This document shows, in pieces, positions 125-8,352 of a stretch of DNA of 55,574 nt (positions are counted from its first letter, which is position 1; every line of letters begins with the position of its first letter). The notes beneath the pieces are model-generated. The model was not told the origin of the DNA, ran no database searches, and saw only the letters and a program-made list of their open reading frames with translations. The position numbers were made by a program, and so were the translations under genes. This stretch comes from Patescibacteria group bacterium (GTDB lineage: Bacteria > Patescibacteriota > Patescibacteriia > Magasanikbacterales > GWA2-37-8): NCBI GenBank assembly GCA_004321885.1, contig SCQK01000001.1, positions 1-55,574 of the forward strand, read 5' to 3'.

Positions 125-153
125 TTGACAAAATTACCAAAGTGTGCTATAAT
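125..153 (+). promoter_or_regulatory. sigma70-type promoter with perfect consensus TTGACA-N17-TATAAT
   Basis: ttgaca at 125-130, a 17-nt spacer, and tataat at 148-153 were read directly. No ORF with an RBS lies downstream before the terminator near 465. Confidence 0.6.
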
Positions 154-159
154 TACTTT

Positions 160-465
160 CGTATAAATGCCACACTCGTGGCATCGCACATTGGGTTTCT
201 ACCCACAAATCCGCACACTGCGTCTTCGGAGTAAGGTTCACCTCTGCTATCAAGCAAAGGCAAACCCAACTCCTACCAGGGCAACTCCAATAAAGCTGAA
301 GATAAGCCGCCTGCGCTTTCTACAGCTGGGGCTCTACCCATTAGCGGTTGCGGTTCTATTGCTACCATTCCGGTAGTCGTCTCCCCCGCCAGGGGGAACA
401 ACTCGGTCTGTGTAGTATTCCTAAAGGCCGAGAGCCATAAAACAACACTTAAGGGCTAATCGGCC
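160..465 (+). ncRNA. candidate ~300-nt structured non-coding RNA of unknown class
   Basis: Starts just downstream of the perfect promoter and ends at the hairpin aaaggccga...tcggcctttt followed by a T-run at ~405-465. Internal hairpins include gccac-act-gtggc, ccccc-gcca-ggggg and agctg...cagct. The only ORF (167-376) has no Shine-Dalgarno sequence. Confidence 0.3.
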
Positions 466-550
466 TTTTATAATTGCAAAAAAAATTACAAAATTTTGCT
501 TTTTTGGCTATGTTTTGATACAATACGCGCATAATTTTTAATTATTTCGT

Positions 551-2239
551 ATGGCAATCAGCTCGCAACCCCAACCAGCCCAACCCACGATCGTGGAAAA
601 GAAAAAAATCCCGGTCGTTGTTTTTATTTTAGCCGGAATCGCGCTTCTGGCCGCCAGCGCTTCGGCCGGATATTGGCTGGCCACCTTAAAAACAGCCAAC
701 AATCCGGTTATTTTCCCAAATAACACGAAAACCGAATCAAAAACAACCACAAACCAGGATGCCGACTTTGTAAAATTTTCAACTCCGAAGCAAATAGACA
801 GCTTGCGCTTATTTATTCCGCAATCGCAAAACAAAAACGAGGCCTTTTGGCATGATGAATCGCAGACCGGCTATTATGATGTTGGTCGGTTGGAATACAG
901 CAACGAAACGACTGCTCCGACCTCTACCAAACTGATAATGACCATCAGCCAGGTGGACATGGGAGAAAACCATTACTTGTTCGCTGTGGCCCCGGATAAG
1001 GCCTACTTACTGACAAAATATTCTGATTATATTGACAGCGGAGCCACAGAACAAGAACTGCAAAAGATCGGGCTGCTTACCGATAAAATAAACATTGATA
1101 CCAGTTTTACTATTCCTTCTCTTGAGTTCCCGCCCCAACTCACCGGACCGGAAAAAAACCAAAAACTCTATTTTGTGAAGAAAACCGCTTTTGACGAAAA
1201 ACCTGTGATGAGCCAACTGATGTTTGAAGATAAAAACTGGGGCAAAATATACACCAGCACAAGCACGGACGGATTTTATATTGACAACGGCGAACCTTAT
1301 GTCGGTGTCTACGCTCCCCAGCTCAACTACCTGGCCAAAAAAATAATTATGAACGACGGCACAGTGAACGAAGATGGATATACCGAAACAAATGCGATTA
1401 GTATATGCGGAACGCGCAGTTTTGCCAATGTTGTTTATGATGGAGTAAATAAACAGGACTTGGTTGGGGTGGGAAAAACACCGACAGGAGATAAAATTTA
1501 CGCTTTAACCAACAGCCAGCACCCGCTCTTAAAAGATTTTTATGACACCGCCGCCTACTTCATTCCAGGCGGTGAAACAAAGATTTCCTATGATGATTTT
1601 TTAAAGGAGAAGCCGCTGTTATTCGCTTATGACCAGTTCAACCGACTAATTGAACTCACAAAAGTCAAATTCCAACCCATGGGTGAATGCGGCAAGCCGG
1701 TAATATATTTGTACCCGGAAAAAACCACGGCTGTATCAGTGAAACTGGCGCCAAACGGCGGATTTACCTACACCGAACCGGTATACGATAATGGCTGGGA
1801 AGTAATGGCCGAGCCCAACGGCGCTTTGACTGAAATCAAAACCGGCAAGGCCTACCCATATCTATTCTGGGAAGGAAATGGCAGTTCCAAATCCAGCGAG
1901 CCGAACAAAAAGGGCTTTGTGGTGGCCAAAGAAAACGTCAAAAAATTTCTTGACGAGAAACTGGCCTTACTGGGCCTAAACGCCAAAGAAAGCGCGGATT
2001 TTGAAGAGTTCTGGTTGCCGCGCATGCAGGAAAAACCATATTATTTCGTCACTTTCTACGGCAAACAAATGATGGACGAAATCGCGCCGCTGGCAGTAAC
2101 GCCAAAGCCGGATACTATCATTAGAATTTTAATGGACTTCACTCCTCTGGCCTCACCAATGGCGGTGGAGGAACAAAAACTGAGCGCCCCCGCCCGCCAG
2201 GGCTTTACTGTCGTGGAATGGGGCGGGGTTCTTCGCTAA
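551..2239 (+). CDS. hypothetical membrane-anchored extracytoplasmic protein (562 aa)
   Basis: Has an N-terminal TM helix (IPVVVFILAGIALLAASASAGYWLATL) and its own TTGCTT-N17-TACAAT promoter at ~497-525. I recognised no domain. Confidence 0.65.
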   Translation: MAISSQPQPAQPTIVEKKKIPVVVFILAGIALLAASASAGYWLATLKTANNPVIFPNNTKTESKTTTNQDADFVKFSTPKQIDSLRLFIPQSQNKNEAFWHDESQTGYYDVGRLEYSNETTAPTSTKLIMTISQVDMGENHYLFAVAPDKAYLLTKYSDYIDSGATEQELQKIGLLTDKINIDTSFTIPSLEFPPQLTGPEKNQKLYFVKKTAFDEKPVMSQLMFEDKNWGKIYTSTSTDGFYIDNGEPYVGVYAPQLNYLAKKIIMNDGTVNEDGYTETNAISICGTRSFANVVYDGVNKQDLVGVGKTPTGDKIYALTNSQHPLLKDFYDTAAYFIPGGETKISYDDFLKEKPLLFAYDQFNRLIELTKVKFQPMGECGKPVIYLYPEKTTAVSVKLAPNGGFTYTEPVYDNGWEVMAEPNGALTEIKTGKAYPYLFWEGNGSSKSSEPNKKGFVVAKENVKKFLDEKLALLGLNAKESADFEEFWLPRMQEKPYYFVTFYGKQMMDEIAPLAVTPKPDTIIRILMDFTPLASPMAVEEQKLSAPARQGFTVVEWGGVLR

Positions 2240-2245
2240 ACAAAT

Positions 2246-4012
2246 ATGCGACAAAACATCCTGATAGCGATAATCGCGGTCGCCGCTTTTGGCGCGGGAT
2301 TGTTTGGTTTCTATTTTGGCAGTTCAAATTTACCCCCCTCTAACTCCCCCCTTATCAAGGGGGGAGAAAACGAAACGACGCGAACACATTCTTCATACAT
2401 CATGGACAAATCAGTCTATGACGGATTTTCCCAAAGCACCAGCGATTTACCCCCCACTAGCTCCCCCCTTAGTAAGGGGGGAGAAACGATTTTTGCCGGG
2501 GTCGTGCCACACCATCTGCTCGTGGGTAAATATATCTCCGGATTTTTCGCCAAACTGCAAAAACAAAAACCCGAGGTCGTCGTGCTCATCGGTCCCAACC
2601 ATCCGCAAGCCGGCAGGAGCGCCGTCGTGAGCGGACTTTACGACTGGAACACGCCCTACGGCGAATTGCCGGCCGCGGAAAAAATAATTTCCGAATTGGC
2701 GCGGCAAAATCTTATCACCATAAATGATGGACTGCTCGGCAAAGAAAACAGCATTGGCGCGCTGGCGCCTTTTATCAAACAAACTTGGGGCAAAACCAAA
2801 TTCGTGCCGCTGATAGTAAAAAACTCCGCCAAACCGGAACAACTGCGAAATCTAACTGACGCGCTCGTAAAACTTTTGCCTAAAAATTCACTGGTTTTGG
2901 CCAGTGTGGATTTTTCCCATTACCTGCCAAAAGAAGTCGCCGACTTCCATGATGAGCTATCCATCAATGTTTTGGAAACCGGCGATGAAGAGCGCGTCGC
3001 GAAAATGGAAATAGACAGCCAGCCGAGCATCCGCTTTTTGCTGGATTACACGCGAGCGATTGGAGCGCGAAAATTCAATTTGCTTTATCACACCAACAGC
3101 GCGGATATAATGCATCAGCCCGAGCTGGCTGAAACCACCAGCCATGTTTTGGGGTATTTCATTGCCGGCGAACTGAGCGCGAGCAAGTCGGTTTCTTTGC
3201 AATTCTTCGGGGATATGATGCTGGAACGCAATGTGGCGCGGGCCATGGGCACGAGCGGTTTGGACTATTTGCTCGGCGACTTGCGCGGAAAAGAAAATAG
3301 ATTTTTTGCAGGCATGGATTTGATTGTGGCCAATCTGGAAGGCCCTTTCGCGCCAGCGCGGATTCAAACAAGTAAATCAATCGCCTTTCGTTTTGACCCG
3401 GCGCTGGCCGGGCAGTTGAAGAAATATAATTTTGGCGCCTTTTCTTTGGCCAACAATCATTTGCTGGACATGGGCTGGAAAAATTTGGACTTTACCAAAA
3501 AAATTCTGGAGCAAAACGACTTGGGTTACTTCGGCGACCAGTGGCGCGAAGGACCGGAGTACACACTGTTGGAGGGGTCGGTTGCTTTCATCGGCATCAA
3601 CAACACCGACCACAACTTGGATATGAAAAAATTGAAAGAGGCCTTGGACGAAGCCCGACATAACGCGGAATATGTTATCGTGATGCCGCACTGGGGAGTG
3701 GAATACCAGCAAACTTCCAACCAAAATCAGCGCGACTTGGCGCATTGGCTGATTGACAACGGCGCCGACGCCGTGGTGGGTAGTCATCCGCACGTGACGC
3801 AAGAAATGAAAATTTACAAAGACGCTCCGATATTTTATTCGCTCGGCAATTTCATTTTTGACCAATATTTTTCCAAAGAAACGCAAGAGGGGCTAAGCGT
3901 GGGGTTGATATTGCAAGATGGGAAAGTGAAAAAAATTTACCAGTTTCCCTTTTACGGTGAAAAATCCAAAGTCCGGCTGAAAGGGTCTGTCGCTGGCGAC
4001 AGACAAAATTAA
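2246..4012 (+). CDS. fusion protein: N-terminal MEMO1/AmmeMemoRadiSam-B-like domain plus C-terminal CapA/PgsA-type (poly-gamma-glutamate synthesis) metallophosphatase domain
   Basis: An N-terminal TM anchor is followed by the MEMO-like motifs VVPHHLLVG...VVVLIGPNHP. The C-terminal half carries CapA-like motifs (ANLEGP, SLANNHLLDMG, VIVMPHWGVEY, VVGSHPHV, GNFIFDQ). Two in-frame palindromic repeat insertions are present. Confidence 0.7.
   Translation: MRQNILIAIIAVAAFGAGLFGFYFGSSNLPPSNSPLIKGGENETTRTHSSYIMDKSVYDGFSQSTSDLPPTSSPLSKGGETIFAGVVPHHLLVGKYISGFFAKLQKQKPEVVVLIGPNHPQAGRSAVVSGLYDWNTPYGELPAAEKIISELARQNLITINDGLLGKENSIGALAPFIKQTWGKTKFVPLIVKNSAKPEQLRNLTDALVKLLPKNSLVLASVDFSHYLPKEVADFHDELSINVLETGDEERVAKMEIDSQPSIRFLLDYTRAIGARKFNLLYHTNSADIMHQPELAETTSHVLGYFIAGELSASKSVSLQFFGDMMLERNVARAMGTSGLDYLLGDLRGKENRFFAGMDLIVANLEGPFAPARIQTSKSIAFRFDPALAGQLKKYNFGAFSLANNHLLDMGWKNLDFTKKILEQNDLGYFGDQWREGPEYTLLEGSVAFIGINNTDHNLDMKKLKEALDEARHNAEYVIVMPHWGVEYQQTSNQNQRDLAHWLIDNGADAVVGSHPHVTQEMKIYKDAPIFYSLGNFIFDQYFSKETQEGLSVGLILQDGKVKKIYQFPFYGEKSKVRLKGSVAGDRQN
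2333..2366. repeat. palindromic repeat family D (CCCCTCC...CCCCTTATNAAGGGG...GGAGGGG), in-frame copy
   Basis: ccccctctaactccccccttatcaaggggggag; translates to LPPSNSPLIKGGE inside the 2246-4012 ORF. Confidence 0.8.
2451..2483. repeat. palindromic repeat family D, in-frame copy
   Basis: cccccactagctccccccttagtaaggggggag; translates to LPPTSSPLSKGGE inside the same ORF. Confidence 0.8.
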
Positions 4013-4116
4013 AATAGGGCCGAGATGTCTAACAACACCCGGCCCCGTAACAAACACTGACTGCCTCCCTTCTTCGTCGCCCCGTAATGGTGGCGATTTT
4101 GTCGTTGAGCGAATGA

Positions 4117-5337
4117 CTACGGCTTCGGCGTGGACTTCTCGGCCTCCACCACCTGGCGCGCCTTCTCCTCCGCCGCTTTGCGCACCTTCTCCGCCTCCGC
4201 TCTGATCTGTTCGGCTTTCTCGTCCGGATCGGACGAGATTTTCACACCCGCCCAGCCGCCCGTCACGTCACGATTCCGCCGCTTGGGCAACGGAGGCGGC
4301 TTGCGCTTGTCCTCGGCCGGTTGTACTGGCCCTGTGGGGTCGTCCTTGGGCGCTACCTTGTCCGCCTCCGCGCAGACATTATTGATGGCCTTGTCCACCG
4401 CTGCCACCTCGTCTGCACTGTCTTTCGGCGGTAGCTCGGCTATCATGCGCAGACCGGTCGGCGTACACGCCTCATCGAACTCGGCCACTGCCTCGGGCAC
4501 TCCCTCACCTGCTTTTTCCTCACCCGCGACCATCTCGTCGGTCACCACTACCTCGCCAGGCGCAGGCTCGTTCTTGACTGACTCTGGCCCTAGCCAGCCA
4601 TATTTCACGACCACTGTGTCCCAGACCTGCATCAGCACCGTCACTTCCAGGTACTCGACAAGAACCTTGGGCTCCAGCAGGGGATGGCTCAACAGAACCT
4701 TATCATCCCAGGTCTGGCCGGCCCTTCCCAAGCGCATGGAGTGCCTCATCACCTCGGCTGTCAGAGCCGGCGGCAACTTGGCGACCTGCTCGGCGTTAAG
4801 CAAGCCGATCGCCTCAACCACCTCGCAGTGAGTATTCTTGCCGGCGCTGACATCTTCCAGCAAGTCCAACTCCAGTATGAGGTCAACCAGCTGGTAGGCG
4901 AGTCGCTTGTGCTCTTTGGTGTCCTTCTCCCGCCAACCGCTCTGGAAGAGCAACTCCTGGATGAGTCGGGCCGGCAGGTAACGAACGGCATCATCGGCCG
5001 GCATAGCCTTGACGATCTGGTCCGGGTTCGTATCCCCCACTTCCAATGCCCCCTCCAGGCCCTCGCCTGCCCACTGCCAAGACTGGCGGCAGACAGTCGC
5101 ACGTGCACCAGATACGGCGCAAGCCTTGAGAATGTCTGCCCGTCTTCCCGGCTGGTCAGCCAACCCCTCCATTATGGCCATGGGCGGAAACTTGGCCACG
5201 ATGTCGCTCGTGGTGAGCACGGTCGCTCCGGTCACGAGCGCTAGGTCCAGCGCGCTGGCCAACAGCTTCTCCGCTGGCCTCAGGTCCCGGGGTTTCTTTG
5301 TCCCAATCGGAACGCTCTCTCCGCTTTCCTTCATCAT
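4117..5337 (-). CDS. hypothetical protein (406 aa) in a GC-rich islet
   Basis: Strong RBS (AAGGAGAAA before ATG). GC content is well above the flanking DNA. The product is acidic with an A/E/K-rich C-terminal low-complexity tail. I recognised no family. Confidence 0.6.
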   Translation of the reverse strand: MMKESGESVPIGTKKPRDLRPAEKLLASALDLALVTGATVLTTSDIVAKFPPMAIMEGLADQPGRRADILKACAVSGARATVCRQSWQWAGEGLEGALEVGDTNPDQIVKAMPADDAVRYLPARLIQELLFQSGWREKDTKEHKRLAYQLVDLILELDLLEDVSAGKNTHCEVVEAIGLLNAEQVAKLPPALTAEVMRHSMRLGRAGQTWDDKVLLSHPLLEPKVLVEYLEVTVLMQVWDTVVVKYGWLGPESVKNEPAPGEVVVTDEMVAGEEKAGEGVPEAVAEFDEACTPTGLRMIAELPPKDSADEVAAVDKAINNVCAEADKVAPKDDPTGPVQPAEDKRKPPPLPKRRNRDVTGGWAGVKISSDPDEKAEQIRAEAEKVRKAAEEKARQVVEAEKSTPKP

Positions 5338-5417
5338 TTTCTCCTTCGTGTTTCTTTCATTTCTCTTGGACCCACCACGGGCCCAATCTGAACTTCATCC
5401 TGAACGCGGCAAAAAAT

Positions 5418-5663
5418 CCCCTACAGGGCCTGTCGCCGAATACGCTTTCGTGACGAAATTACAGAATTCCGAGACAAAATTGTTGAATAATTTTGCGGCT
5501 TACCTGGAAGGTAAGCCAAAAATTTGAAGCGAACTTAAAAATTTCTGCGGGCTTCGCAAGTCAAAATAAATTTTGACTTGTCTCAGCCCTTGAAATTTTG
5601 AGACAATTTTGGCCGGAATTCTGGAATTGCAGTAGAAATGGTATTCGGCGACAGGCCCCTACA
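5418..5663. repeat. hairpin-dense ~246-bp element bounded by an 18-bp perfect inverted repeat (MITE-like or structured RNA)
   Basis: Left end cccctacaGGGCCTGTCGCCGAATAC and right end GTATTCGGCGACAGGCCcctaca. Interior palindromes include caagtcaaaat-a-attttgacttg, gcttacc...ggtaagc, gtctcag...ttgagac and an imperfect cagaattccgagacaaaattg / caattttggccggaattctg pair. Confidence 0.6.
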
Positions 5664-5928
5664 ATAAAAACGAAAGGGATCCTTCCACCGCCCCGAGGCG
5701 GGGCCCCGCTGCGGCGGTGGCGCTTCGCTCAGGATGACAGTAAATAAGTCAAGGCTGCGAAAAAAATTATAAAGAACTATATAACATTACACAGGATGCT
5801 TGATTTGTCAAGCTCCGCCGCTCTATTTTTGGCTTAGGCCAGCCGCAACTCGGCTGTAACCAAATGGGGTTGACTATCCCCCGCCAAACAGGGTATAATA
5901 TATCTGTTTTTACTCTCACTTATTTCGT

Positions 5929-6321
5929 ATGGAAAAGACCAAAGCCGGTTTCGCGCCGGAATTTCTAAAAAAAATAAAACAGATGCTTTCCGATGAAAAA
6001 GCCAAGCTGGAAAGCGAGCTGGCCAAATTTGCCAAAAAAAATCCCGAGGAAGAAGGCGACTATAAAAGCTCGTTTCCGGATTACGGCGACAAAGACGACG
6101 AGAACGCGGCCGAGGTGGCCGAGTACGCCGTGAATTTATCTTTGGAAGACAACCTGGAAAAAACCCTGCGCGACGTGCGCTCGGCCCTGAAGCGCCTGGA
6201 AAAAGGCGACTATGGTTTTTGCAAATACTGCCACAAACCCATAGAAGAAAAGCGCCTGCTGGCCCGCCCCACTTCCAGTTCCTGCATGGAATGCAAAAAA
6301 ATAATCAAGCAGGAAGTTTAG
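5929..6321 (+). CDS. dksA: DksA/TraR family C4-type zinc-finger protein
   Basis: Coiled-coil N-terminal region plus a CxxC-N17-CxxC finger (CKYCHKPIEEKRLLARPTSSSCMECKK). A TATAAT element lies upstream at ~5893. Confidence 0.7.
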   Translation: MEKTKAGFAPEFLKKIKQMLSDEKAKLESELAKFAKKNPEEEGDYKSSFPDYGDKDDENAAEVAEYAVNLSLEDNLEKTLRDVRSALKRLEKGDYGFCKYCHKPIEEKRLLARPTSSSCMECKKIIKQEV

Positions 6322-6322
6322 T

Positions 6323-6829
6323 ATGTTACAAAAAATCCGCTGGAGGAGTTTGCTCACTGGCGGATTTTTTTTAATTATTGACCAATTTTTGAAATGGTTT
6401 TCTTTAGACGCGTGGACAGAAAAAAAGATTGGCTGCCTCGGTTTACCCCCACACCAAAATTTTTGGTGTGGGGGCTGGGAACCATTCGCCAATTATGGCG
6501 CGGCTTTTGGCTTGCCCGTGCCCAACCGGGTGATTGTCATTCTGACTATTCCCGCCCTGTTTCTGATTGGGTATCTATTCGCGAAACAAAGACCCCCTCT
6601 TAATCTCCCCCTTAGCAAGGGGGAGGGGATTCGTTTATTTGCGCTCGCAATTTTATTTTTCGGAGCGCTGTCAAACCTGATAGACCGGCTGGCCTATGGA
6701 TACGTGGTGGATTATCTGCGAGCGCTTACGGGAATAATAAATTTGAGCGATATTCTGATTGTATTGGGATTATTATTTTTTTTGTTTGGTAAAGGGATTC
6801 CTCTCCCGACTAAGTCGGGATCGGAATGA
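6323..6829 (+). CDS. lspA: lipoprotein signal peptidase II
   Basis: Four TM segments with the motifs NYGAAFGLP and DRLAYGYVVDYL. Contains an in-frame family-D repeat (RPPLNLPLSKGEG). Confidence 0.75.
   Translation: MLQKIRWRSLLTGGFFLIIDQFLKWFSLDAWTEKKIGCLGLPPHQNFWCGGWEPFANYGAAFGLPVPNRVIVILTIPALFLIGYLFAKQRPPLNLPLSKGEGIRLFALAILFFGALSNLIDRLAYGYVVDYLRALTGIINLSDILIVLGLLFFLFGKGIPLPTKSGSE
6593..6628. repeat. palindromic repeat family D, in-frame in lspA
   Basis: ccccctcttaatctcccccttagcaagggggagggg. Confidence 0.8.
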
Positions 6830-6832
6830 CAG
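6803..6832. repeat. palindromic repeat family B core (CCCGACTAAGTCGGG) plus the ggaatgacag motif shared with family A
   Basis: tcccgactaagtcgggatcggaatgacag at the lspA 3' end / comM start. Confidence 0.7.
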
Positions 6833-8352
6833 TATGTATGTTTTGTAAATTGAACTCGGGCTCGGTGATGGGTTTGGAATGCCAGCCCGTGGAAGTGGAG
6901 GTTGACATCAGCAAAGGTCAGACCGCCTTCGGCATCGTGGGCCTGCCCGACGCTTCCATCAACGAAGCGCGCAGCCGCATCCACTCGGCCATTAAAAATT
7001 CCGGCTATGATTATCCGTTTAATTTTCGCATCCTAATAAATCTGGCGCCGGCCAGCGCGCGCAAAGAAGGCACGTCCTATGACTTGGCCATGGCCGCGGG
7101 CATGATCGTGGCCAGCGGCGAATTGCGCGCCGATCTAAGCGACGCCATCCTGACCGGCGAACTGGCCTTAGACGGCGCCCTGCGGCACGTAAACGGCATC
7201 TTGCCGCTCTCCCTGTTCGCCAAAAACCGCGGACTGAAAAGAATCTTCCTGCCGGAAATGGACGCGCCCGAAGCCGGACTGGTGGACGGACTGGAAATAT
7301 ATCCGGTGAAAAATTTGCGCCAGTTACTGGAACACATTGAGGGCAAAACGTTTATCGCCCCTTACGCGCGTACGGAAAATCCGAACAATTATCGCGCGCC
7401 CGAATACGAACTGGACATGGCGCTCATCAAAGGCCAGGAGTTCGCCAAACGCGCGCTGGAAATCGCGGCCAGCGGGGCGCACAACATACTGATGAGCGGG
7501 CCGCCCGGCTCGGGCAAGACCCTTTTGGCGCGCACCCTGCCTTCCATTTTACCGCGCCTTACTTCCGACGAAGTATTGGAAGTGACAAAAATTTATTCCG
7601 TGGCCGGCCTGCTCCAAAGCAGTTTCATCACCGAACGTCCGTTTCGCTCGCCGCACCACACGGCCTCGGGCGTGGCCTTGGTGGGCGGCGGCCGGTATCC
7701 GCGGCCCGGCGAAATATCCCTCTCGCACCGCGGCGTGCTTTTTTTGGATGAGTTCCCCGAATTCGCTCGCTCGGTTTTGGAAAACCTGCGCCAGCCCCTG
7801 GAAGACGGAACCGTTACCGTTTCCCGCGCCGAGGGTTCGGTCGCTTTTCCGGCCCGCTTTATTCTGGTGGCCAGCCAAAATCCCTGTCCCTGCGGTTTTT
7901 ACACCGACCCGGAACGGCAATGCACCTGTGGCAGCGCGCAAATTTTGCGTTACCGAAAAAAAATCAGCGGCCCCTTGTTGGACCGCATTGATTTGCACAC
8001 CGAGGTGCCGCGAGTGAAGTTTGAAAAACTGGCCTCGGACGAACTGGCCGAGTCATCGGAAAAAATACGCCTGCGCGTGGAAGAAGCGCGCGAACGGCAG
8101 AACAAAAGATTCCGCGGCTTGCCCGTGACCGCCAATAGCGAAATGAGGGGCGGTGAAATCCGCCAGTTCTGCAAACTGGACGACCCGTCAATTGATTTGT
8201 TGCGCGCGGCCATGACCCGCATGCGCCTGTCGGCGCGCGCCTACAATCGCGTTCTCAAACTCGGCCGCACCATCGCCGACCTGGCCAAGAGTGACGACAT
8301 CAAGCTGGAACACGTGGCCGAAGCCCTGCAGTATCGAGCAAAAAGCGAATAA
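6826..8352 (+). CDS. comM: YifB/ComM family Mg-chelatase-like AAA+ ATPase
   Basis: N-terminal Lon-like domain, Walker A GPPGSGKT, sensor motifs, and a C-terminal domain conserved along its full length. Confidence 0.9.
   Translation: MTVCMFCKLNSGSVMGLECQPVEVEVDISKGQTAFGIVGLPDASINEARSRIHSAIKNSGYDYPFNFRILINLAPASARKEGTSYDLAMAAGMIVASGELRADLSDAILTGELALDGALRHVNGILPLSLFAKNRGLKRIFLPEMDAPEAGLVDGLEIYPVKNLRQLLEHIEGKTFIAPYARTENPNNYRAPEYELDMALIKGQEFAKRALEIAASGAHNILMSGPPGSGKTLLARTLPSILPRLTSDEVLEVTKIYSVAGLLQSSFITERPFRSPHHTASGVALVGGGRYPRPGEISLSHRGVLFLDEFPEFARSVLENLRQPLEDGTVTVSRAEGSVAFPARFILVASQNPCPCGFYTDPERQCTCGSAQILRYRKKISGPLLDRIDLHTEVPRVKFEKLASDELAESSEKIRLRVEEARERQNKRFRGLPVTANSEMRGGEIRQFCKLDDPSIDLLRAAMTRMRLSARAYNRVLKLGRTIADLAKSDDIKLEHVAEALQYRAKSE

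Follow-up and report, generated by a model that had tools for sequence, protein, structure and literature searches.

Does the first half-kilobase of this contig hold an RNA gene of its own, and if so, to which class does that RNA belong? The original prediction, made from sequence alone, placed here, behind a perfect promoter, a non-coding RNA of about 300 nt that is transcribed on its own and whose class is unknown. Throughout, the window means the whole stretch of DNA that was analysed (55,574 nt, a complete contig from a metagenome-assembled Patescibacteria genome), and loci from other Patescibacteria are referred to by L numbers. The promoter and the predicted transcript are as follows.

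125-153, plus strand: sigma-70 promoter, with a -35 element TTGACA at 125-130, a 17-nt spacer and a -10 element TATAAT at 148-153.
161-469, plus strand: RNA gene, predicted to be transcribed from G161 into the U-run (466-469) for a length of about 309 nt; its ends are unmeasured.

In a promoter scan this site matched the consensus at 12 of 12 positions, and it additionally carries the TG of an extended -10 at 145-146, one base 5′ of the -10 hexamer. Perfect TTGACA-N16-18-TATAAT sites are rare, with three in the 55.6 kb of the window as compared to 0.02 expected from shuffled sequence; one of the other two falls in the dnaA-rpmH/rnpA region. A near-consensus sigma-70 promoter is also found at an equivalent distance from the RNA in all of the homologues that were read. 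For example, L064 and L075 each show TTGACG-17-TATAAT with the TG, followed by approximately 300 nt and then a terminator. The predicted start was placed at G161, 7 nt after the -10 element, because relatives conserve a G at that spacing. Separately, the sequence of the promoter spacer (AAAATTACCAAAGTGTGCT, 130-148) recurs with 84% identity as a direct repeat at 482-500, just past the terminator.

Homologues were gathered by three routes: nhmmer, loci anchored on DksA, and a pattern scan of metagenomes. The first sample comprised 80 Patescibacteria loci, fetched via homologues of the 562-aa protein encoded downstream of the RNA, and nhmmer with the candidate region matched L064 (E = 1.3e-6). 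The DksA-anchored loci that carry the RNA are L082-86, L097, L099/100, L101/102, L103/104 and L105-107, and these are all the loci whose upstream sequence was long enough to contain it. Indeed, nine of the ten DksA homologues that were looked up sit on RNA-bearing loci; the tenth, L081, is a 2.3-kb contig with a different gene directly upstream of dksA. The metagenome scan, which used a pattern of conserved core motifs, returned ten matches, consisting of eight new members, one that is the L085 contig again and one chance match (L095) that was rejected as a member since it shows no promoter, no terminator and no match to the covariance model described below. Viral contigs scanned with the same pattern gave no matches. 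The similarity of L005 and L004 was likewise discarded, as it is confined to the promoter and reflects ordinary promoters of protein genes. In total, 18 further distinct homologues were found in other Patescibacteria contigs, giving 19 distinct sequences with that of the window. Assemblies labelled Candidatus Magasanikbacteria and "Parcubacteria group" are among their sources, and the DksA proteins of RNA-bearing lineages are roughly 55-70% identical to the DksA of the window. With only 19 sequences sampled, and their taxonomy resolved no more than coarsely, it is uncertain how widely the family extends.

In all homologues read at full length, promoter, RNA and terminator occur in the same order, and the family shares a common anatomy: a promoter, one or more 5′ hairpins in most members, a core built around a three-way junction, a long hairpin with a G+C tip, and a terminator. 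The region 160-470 of the window folds more stably than shuffled sequence (z = -6.5, equal on both strands) and is richer in G+C (~54%) than its flanks (~43%). Its structural elements are listed below.

167-205, plus strand: 5′ domain of two hairpins, P0a (167-173/178-184) and P0b (192-196/201-205), taken from the minimum-free-energy fold.
208-357, plus strand: core three-way junction comprising P1, P2, P3 and P4, defined by covariance model R1 and covariation.
211-215 plus 217-221 / 344-348 plus 349-353, plus strand: P1, which contains an invariant U-G wobble.
228-232/269-273, 235-238/263-266 and 241-248/253-260, plus strand: P2, a long hairpin.
279-281/337-339 and 285-288/328-331, plus strand: P3, with an internal loop of CAA opposite CUCUA.
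294-298/323-327, plus strand: P4, a hairpin carried on P3.
360-417, plus strand: P5, a long irregular hairpin with an outer stem (360-365/412-417), an apical G+C stem (382-387/392-397) and the loop GCCA (388-391).
423-469, plus strand: P6, the intrinsic terminator hairpin, with a base stem (423-431/460-468), an inner stem (433-436/454-457) and a U-run (466-469).

Most members place a hairpin at the extreme 5′ end, often GUAG-UUCAUU-CUAC, and the corresponding stem in the window is AUGCCAC/GUGGCAU. Many relatives form a second 5′ hairpin with a variable stem (GUGC/GCAC, CUGC/GCAG, CGUC/GACG or UUCGC/GCGAA), which is missing from a subgroup consisting of L064, L075, L087, L090, L085 and L096. 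Within the core, the junction nucleotides are invariant. The outer helix of P1 covaries (CCGCA/UGCGG, CUCCGA/UCGGAG, CUCAA/UUGAG, GACCC/GGGUC, ACCUUCC/GGAAGGU), while the inner helix ACUGY/GYGGU is almost invariant and retains its U-G wobble in 19 of 19 members. Across the family the internal loop of P3 reads YAA opposite NNNUA, and P4 is variable, being capped by UUCG in several members. A hairpin analogous to P5 folds in every member even though its outer stem differs in sequence between them (AUACUAC/GUAGUAU, CUGC/GCAG, CCUGU/ACAGG, CUGUCU/AGACAG); in about half of the members read, its tip is a GNRA tetraloop (GUAA, GUGA, GGAA, GAAA, GAGA or GCAA). As a side observation, the P0b hairpin (TGGGTTTCTACCCA, 192-205) resembles the 3′ strand of P3 (TGGGGCTCTACCCA, 327-340).

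The base stem of the terminator in the window pairs AAAGGCCGA (423-431) with UCGGCCUUU (460-468) and runs into UUUUA, which is a short U-run. Its loop carries the conserved motif AUAAAACAA; UUAAAAC is common to the window, L064, L101, L103, L106 and L107. The base stem also covaries between subgroups (GGCCG/CGGCC, GGCGAUC/GAUCGCC, GGGCG/CGCCC and AGAGCGAG/CUCGCUCU), a comparison that was made directly on the sequences rather than by alignment columns, as MAFFT shifts the subgroups by one column. The hairpin was seen in the minimum-free-energy fold and was missed by a simple scanner limited to loops of 8 nt. Of the claims in the original prediction that concern the two ends of the gene, the perfect promoter at 125-153 therefore held, with its full consensus match and its rarity in the window, while the terminator, which had been put at approximately 405-465 as a stem plus T-run, held only in part: the actual hairpin and U-run occupy 423-469.

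We then asked how well the alignments support the core helices. RNAalifold on the full-length alignment predicted P1 to P3 and the P5 tip; of the 30 pairs, 18 show compensatory change. The core was evaluated in two alignments, one made with MAFFT (A5) and one based on the covariance model (A7). Standard pairs are formed by 90.1% (A5) and 89.4% (A7) of core cells, as compared to 34-51% when the pairing partners are slid by one to three columns. Similarly, pairs changed on both sides number 18/33 (A5) and 19/33 (A7) versus 1-8 when slid, and the covariation score is 0.386 (A5) and 0.383 (A7) versus at most 0.116. None of 500 shuffles reached the observed core values in either alignment; these shuffles ignore phylogeny, whereas the slid controls keep relatedness and are clearly lower. 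The core structure is thus well supported by covariation. The absence of conservation or covariation among relatives, which would have refuted the original prediction, was in this way checked, and both proved strong across the 19 members.

Sixteen sequences, that of the window among them, were used to build R1, a covariance model for the core with 160 positions and 33 pairs. It matches the window once, at 208-357, with 105.6 bits and E = 2e-24, the window being among the training sequences, and it scores 73-141 bits on L105, L106 and L107, which lie outside the training set. Searched against roughly 1 Mb of Patescibacteria DNA, in which the remainder of the window was included, R1 matches each family locus once and nothing else. 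The window thus meets the criteria for the family, namely P1 ACUGY...AGYGGU, P3 GGGYAAC...UACC and an R1 match, together with a near-consensus promoter, an intrinsic terminator and a position upstream of dksA-lspA-comM on the same strand.

The earlier statement that the region has no credible open reading frame needed correction, as an ATG frame of 69 aa exists at 167-376, starting 6 nt after the predicted transcription start. Its position, frame and start codon are, however, not conserved among 16 homologues, the homologue in L089 has no frame of at least 30 aa, and indels in the family alignment are not multiples of three. We consider the RNA to be non-coding because the frames in its members agree in neither phase nor start nor length, and one member lacks any.

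The proposed absence of RNase P RNA, tmRNA, SRP RNA and 5S rRNA motifs, and with it the unknown class, was upheld by Rfam and ARAGORN. The covariance-model scan that had been suggested as a check was run with Rfam 15 and matched no known class: the window returned nothing for this region at gathering score, and the window, L082 and L101 gave no relevant match at E up to 10. At gathering score, 12 loci (139 kb) yielded only tRNAs and one AdoCbl riboswitch. That riboswitch (58.6 bits; L085, 15858-16020) lies 3′ of the penicillin-binding protein gene, proximal to the origin, and its detection indicates that the Rfam scan works on these genomes. ARAGORN found three tRNAs and no tmRNA in the window. 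Neither the window nor L082 or L101 matched the 6S RNA model (RF00013) at E up to 10, and nor did the 12 loci at gathering score; the architecture of 6S RNA is also lacking, since a rod with a central bubble and paired 5′ and 3′ ends is replaced here by a three-way junction and then two separate hairpins. RNase P RNA had no Rfam match, and no GGAAAGUCC or ACAGAA-type conserved strands were seen by eye in the alignment. The tRNA-like end of tmRNA is lacking, as the 3′ end of this RNA is a terminator hairpin. SRP RNA similarly had no Rfam match, the alignment showed by eye no helix-8 motif, and a simple G+C helix forms the P5 tip, with none of the SRP internal loops. None of the known riboswitch or leader aptamer models in Rfam 15 matched the family. 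Transfer RNA genes interrupted by group I introns are reported to occur in Patescibacteria; such a gene was tried as a candidate and rejected, as neither end shows a tRNA arm and Rfam gave no group I intron match. The full-text literature searched contained no description of such an RNA either, and the family, being absent from Rfam 15 and without a description that we could find, probably represents an undescribed RNA class.

The chromosomal position of the RNA is also conserved. Three downstream genes, all identified with Pfam, recur throughout this analysis.

5929-6321, plus strand: dksA/traR-like gene.
6323-6829, plus strand: lspA.
6826-8352, plus strand: comM/chlI-like gene.

This block (5929-8352 in the window) directly follows the RNA in most relatives; in L064 and L075, for example, the RNA is immediately upstream of dksA-lspA. 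Wherever the available flank suffices, dksA-lspA-comM follows the RNA in the same orientation, and dnaN and dnaA are nearby. The RNA is approximately 10-15 kb from rnpA/rpmH. In the window, dksA is 5.5 kb downstream, with three genes inserted between, and the neighbours run in the order Memo/PGA_cap fusion, a 406-aa minus-strand protein, dksA/traR-like, lspA, comM/chlI-like and class A penicillin-binding protein (Pfam), followed on the minus strand by frames that match the dnaN and dnaA of relatives in position and length. Inserted genes also separate the RNA from dksA in L085, L096, L088/L099 and L093, and in each case the RNA is kept. In the window, L085 and L096 a gene on the opposite strand parts the two: the 406-aa frame of the window (4117-5337, minus strand) has no Pfam match, L096 carries a homologue (36% identity) at the same place between RNA and dksA, and L085 has a 384-aa minus-strand gene there. 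That the RNA is kept despite these insertions favours action in trans.

The first protein downstream in the window (551-2239, 562 aa) is identical to EPN28_00005, the lowest locus tag of a Patescibacteria assembly, and it is likely that NCBI annotated nothing upstream of it. This gene had been said to have its own promoter. For the window the claim rests on a plausible extended -10 element, TGaTACAAT at 516-524, with a weak -35, both read by eye where the scanner made no call; in relatives, clear TTGACA/T-17-TAnnnT promoters stand between the RNA terminator and the next gene.

Several other features of these loci were recorded along the way. A GC-rich island at 4000-5400 of the window (58-65% as compared to ~45-50% around it) coincides with the 406-aa frame. 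The 590-nt gap between this frame and dksA contains a nested inverted repeat of about 230 nt (5415-5670), whose arms pair 5426-5449/5635-5658, 5457-5471/5614-5628, 5475-5493/5593-5611 and 5489-5505/5509-5525 and which folds as one very long hairpin (z = -11.75; -110.6 kcal/mol versus -57.5 shuffled); a miniature mobile element and a further structured RNA are both possible explanations. An IS110-family transposase gene follows dksA in L103 (4690-5664), where it sits between dksA and lspA, and in L104 (4455-5429), where a different gene set follows; the RNA is intact in both. Finally, automatic gene calls of 49-153 aa without Pfam matches overlap or abut the RNA gene and the control region upstream of it in the public records of L099 (2941-3090) and L082 (8568-9029/8598-8972), and these are probably spurious frames.

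Upstream of the promoter, the relatives share a second set of conserved elements. DnaA boxes (TGTGGATAA, allowing at most one mismatch) occur two or three per relative, all in the same orientation, and their offsets from the RNA start are fixed at -108/-140/-186 or -192/-212/-224. Counted over the 700 nt upstream of the RNA in L064, L075, L082, L085, L087-L097, L101, L103 and L105-L107, their density is 3.6/kb as compared to 0.4/kb elsewhere in the loci, a 9-fold difference. Between these boxes and the RNA promoter the relatives carry the conserved motif TAGCCAAAA. In addition, a 20-bp palindrome, TGTATACnnTAGTnTATACA, is confined to loci with the RNA (17 of the 104 examined, one to two copies each). 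Nearly all copies lie within approximately 250 nt upstream of the RNA, most of these loci have two, often about 100-125 nt apart, and in several members a copy adjoins the -35 element. Its half-sites resemble parS or operator sites. The following positions are examples, together with a palindrome of the window.

L064, 1735-1868: TGTATACnnTAGTnTATACA palindrome.
L075, 1593-1726: TGTATACnnTAGTnTATACA palindrome.
L082, 9356-9375: TGTATACnnTAGTnTATACA palindrome.
L093, 1586-1707: TGTATACnnTAGTnTATACA palindrome.
L101, 3244-3387: TGTATACnnTAGTnTATACA palindrome.
Window, 53-69, no strand assigned: palindrome TGTTCACACAGTGAACA, located ~55 nt 5′ of the -35 element, unique in the window and different from TGTATACnnTAGTnTATACA.

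The window offers only 124 nt upstream of the -35 element before the contig ends. We infer from position only that TGTTCACACAGTGAACA is the counterpart of TGTATACnnTAGTnTATACA; it may be an operator. The DnaA boxes raised the further idea that the RNA marks the replication origin. This was rejected, as the GC-skew switch falls at dnaN/dnaA (~12-15 kb in the window, ~17-18 kb in L082) and not at the RNA, and the cumulative GC-skew minimum of the window, at ~12-13.5 kb, is near dnaN and dnaA. With the switch away from the RNA, the boxes are more likely to be regulatory or titrating sites than an origin. As inferred from the same skew, transcription of the RNA and of the plus-strand genes that follow over roughly 12 kb, up to the penicillin-binding protein gene, would run head-on to replication.

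Taken together, positions 161-469 (plus strand) most likely constitute a genuine, independent structured RNA gene of about 310 nt that belongs to a new Patescibacteria family, although transcript, ends and abundance are predicted and there are no expression data. The original reading of an independently transcribed non-coding RNA of unknown class is supported by conservation and covariation; transcription itself remains a prediction. As we picture it, the RNA would accumulate as a stable folded molecule with both ends guarded by hairpins, and would act in trans, its most likely role being to bind a protein or serve it as a scaffold; the invariant three-way junction would be the recognition surface for that protein, or possibly for a ligand. 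By inference, its synthesis is coupled to DnaA or to a factor that binds the palindrome, and is probably tied to replication or growth status; this tie is proposed because DnaA boxes and palindrome flank the promoter in relatives. A role in transcription control through the DksA-like RNA-polymerase factor is conceivable, though suggested by conserved adjacency alone, and the adjacency to dksA may merely reflect conserved gene order near the replication origin. Function and partner are inferred rather than shown, and any specific assignment, such as a 6S-like role, should be regarded as improbable. Bolder still, and in our judgement unlikely, is the reading that the RNA is an essential subunit or regulator of an unknown ribonucleoprotein specific to a large branch of the Patescibacteria; an example would be a structurally novel 6S analogue, switched by DnaA and acting on RNA polymerase together with the DksA-like factor. 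If true, this would tie transcription capacity to replication in minimal-genome, symbiont-like bacteria.

The main rival is that the RNA is not independent at all and is instead a cis-acting leader, either riboswitch-like or a protein-dependent attenuator, whose terminator at 423-469 gates read-through into the genes downstream, which would be dksA-lspA-comM in relatives and the 562-aa gene in the window. We consider this unlikely, but two observations speak for it. The RNA always precedes dksA in the same orientation, and in most lineages the two are immediate neighbours. Moreover, a 1:2/2:3/3:4 arrangement of P5 and the terminator is possible, through the pairing given here.

403-432, plus strand: possible alternative duplex between the 3′ strand of P5 (403-410, CUCGGUCU) and the 5′ strand of the terminator (425-432, AGGCCGAG).

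In the window this duplex is worth -13.9 kcal/mol versus -14.5 for the terminator, and the pairing approximates terminator stability in L085 and the L064 group as well and, by eye, in L107 and L105. Against the leader, the analogous pairing is strong in nine of 16 members but weak or absent in the other seven. Near-consensus promoters stand between terminator and next gene in the relatives read, the first downstream gene varies between genomes, the RNA is still conserved in L085, L096 and the window despite an opposite-strand gene in front of dksA, and there is no Rfam riboswitch match.

A second and likewise improbable alternative holds that the RNA, while independent, is a functional analogue of 6S RNA or Ms1 that binds RNA polymerase with a different fold, in concert with the DksA-like factor. 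In its favour, a strong promoter drives a stable structured RNA beside a DksA/TraR zinc-finger gene, and no canonical 6S RNA was found in the loci scanned, which are only small parts of their genomes. On the other side, a three-way junction with separate hairpins is not a rod with a central bubble, the Rfam 6S model found nothing at E up to 10, and adjacency alone is weak evidence.

A small RNA that regulates by base-pairing, with a pyrimidine-rich single-stranded stretch or loop contacting its mRNA targets, is slightly less probable again. The pyrimidine-rich ACUCCUACC at 269-277, the UUCU loop of P0b and the possession of a promoter and terminator would suit such an RNA, but the ACUYCU stretch is mostly paired within P2 (pairs 42-45 with 108-111), the loop sequences are not conserved, and an invariant junction and a length of 300 nt would be unusual in a seed-type small RNA. 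A highly divergent RNase P RNA, SRP RNA or tmRNA overlooked by standard models is all but ruled out: the distance of ~10-15 kb to rnpA/rpmH and, for RNase P RNA, the approximate size are compatible with it, but three diverse members gave no Rfam match at E up to 10, ARAGORN called no tmRNA, no P4-type strands, tRNA-like 3′ end or SRP helix-8 motif could be seen by eye, and the molecule ends in a terminator hairpin instead of paired 5′ and 3′ ends. Finally, that the locus is a small protein gene (the 69-aa frame at 167-376) or a spacer that folds well by chance can be practically dismissed, for although the ATG lies 6 nt after the predicted start, the frames of homologues differ in phase, start and extent with none of at least 30 aa in L089, indels are not in triplets, and compensatory base changes preserve the helices.

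Returning to the independent RNA gene as the preferred reading, its perfect promoter, invariant junction, fixed position and retention across divergent lineages make it very likely that the RNA is important to its hosts. Patescibacteria have genomes of about 1 Mb, have lost many pathways and are mostly uncultured, and the features retained in such reduced genomes are informative. New RNA classes are not rare; one so conserved in a minimal-genome radiation is noteworthy, and it would join the short list of large conserved bacterial RNAs without known function. A promoter flanked by DnaA boxes and palindromes, beside the gene for an RNA-polymerase-binding factor, would also give access to regulation in organisms of which most resist cultivation, and the covariance model and alignment can be used to annotate the family in public Patescibacteria assemblies.

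How does this RNA compare with known systems? With attenuating leaders and riboswitches it shares a folded domain followed by an intrinsic terminator and, in many members, an antiterminator-like competing pairing; it differs from them in that this pairing is not universal in the family, the next gene has its own strong promoter, and the genes that follow vary and in some cases lie on the opposite strand. With 6S RNA (RF00013) and mycobacterial Ms1 it would share the character of a probably abundant, stable, housekeeping-type non-coding RNA and a link to a DksA-like factor acting on RNA polymerase, but it lacks the rod, the central bubble and the closing stem, and the functional analogy is speculative. 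A further likeness is to the raiA motif RNA and OLE RNA, orphan structured bacterial RNAs that are each kept beside a particular protein gene. Like them, the Patescibacteria RNA is an independent unit of a few hundred nucleotides with its own terminator, is built from multi-helix junctions with near-invariant nucleotides, is restricted to a lineage, has no known biochemical function, and is kept beside one protein gene, in this case dksA. It differs from both in host phylum, fold and neighbouring gene and does not match their Rfam models. As far as Rfam 15 and the literature searched go, its standing is comparable to that of raiA or OLE RNA when they were first reported.
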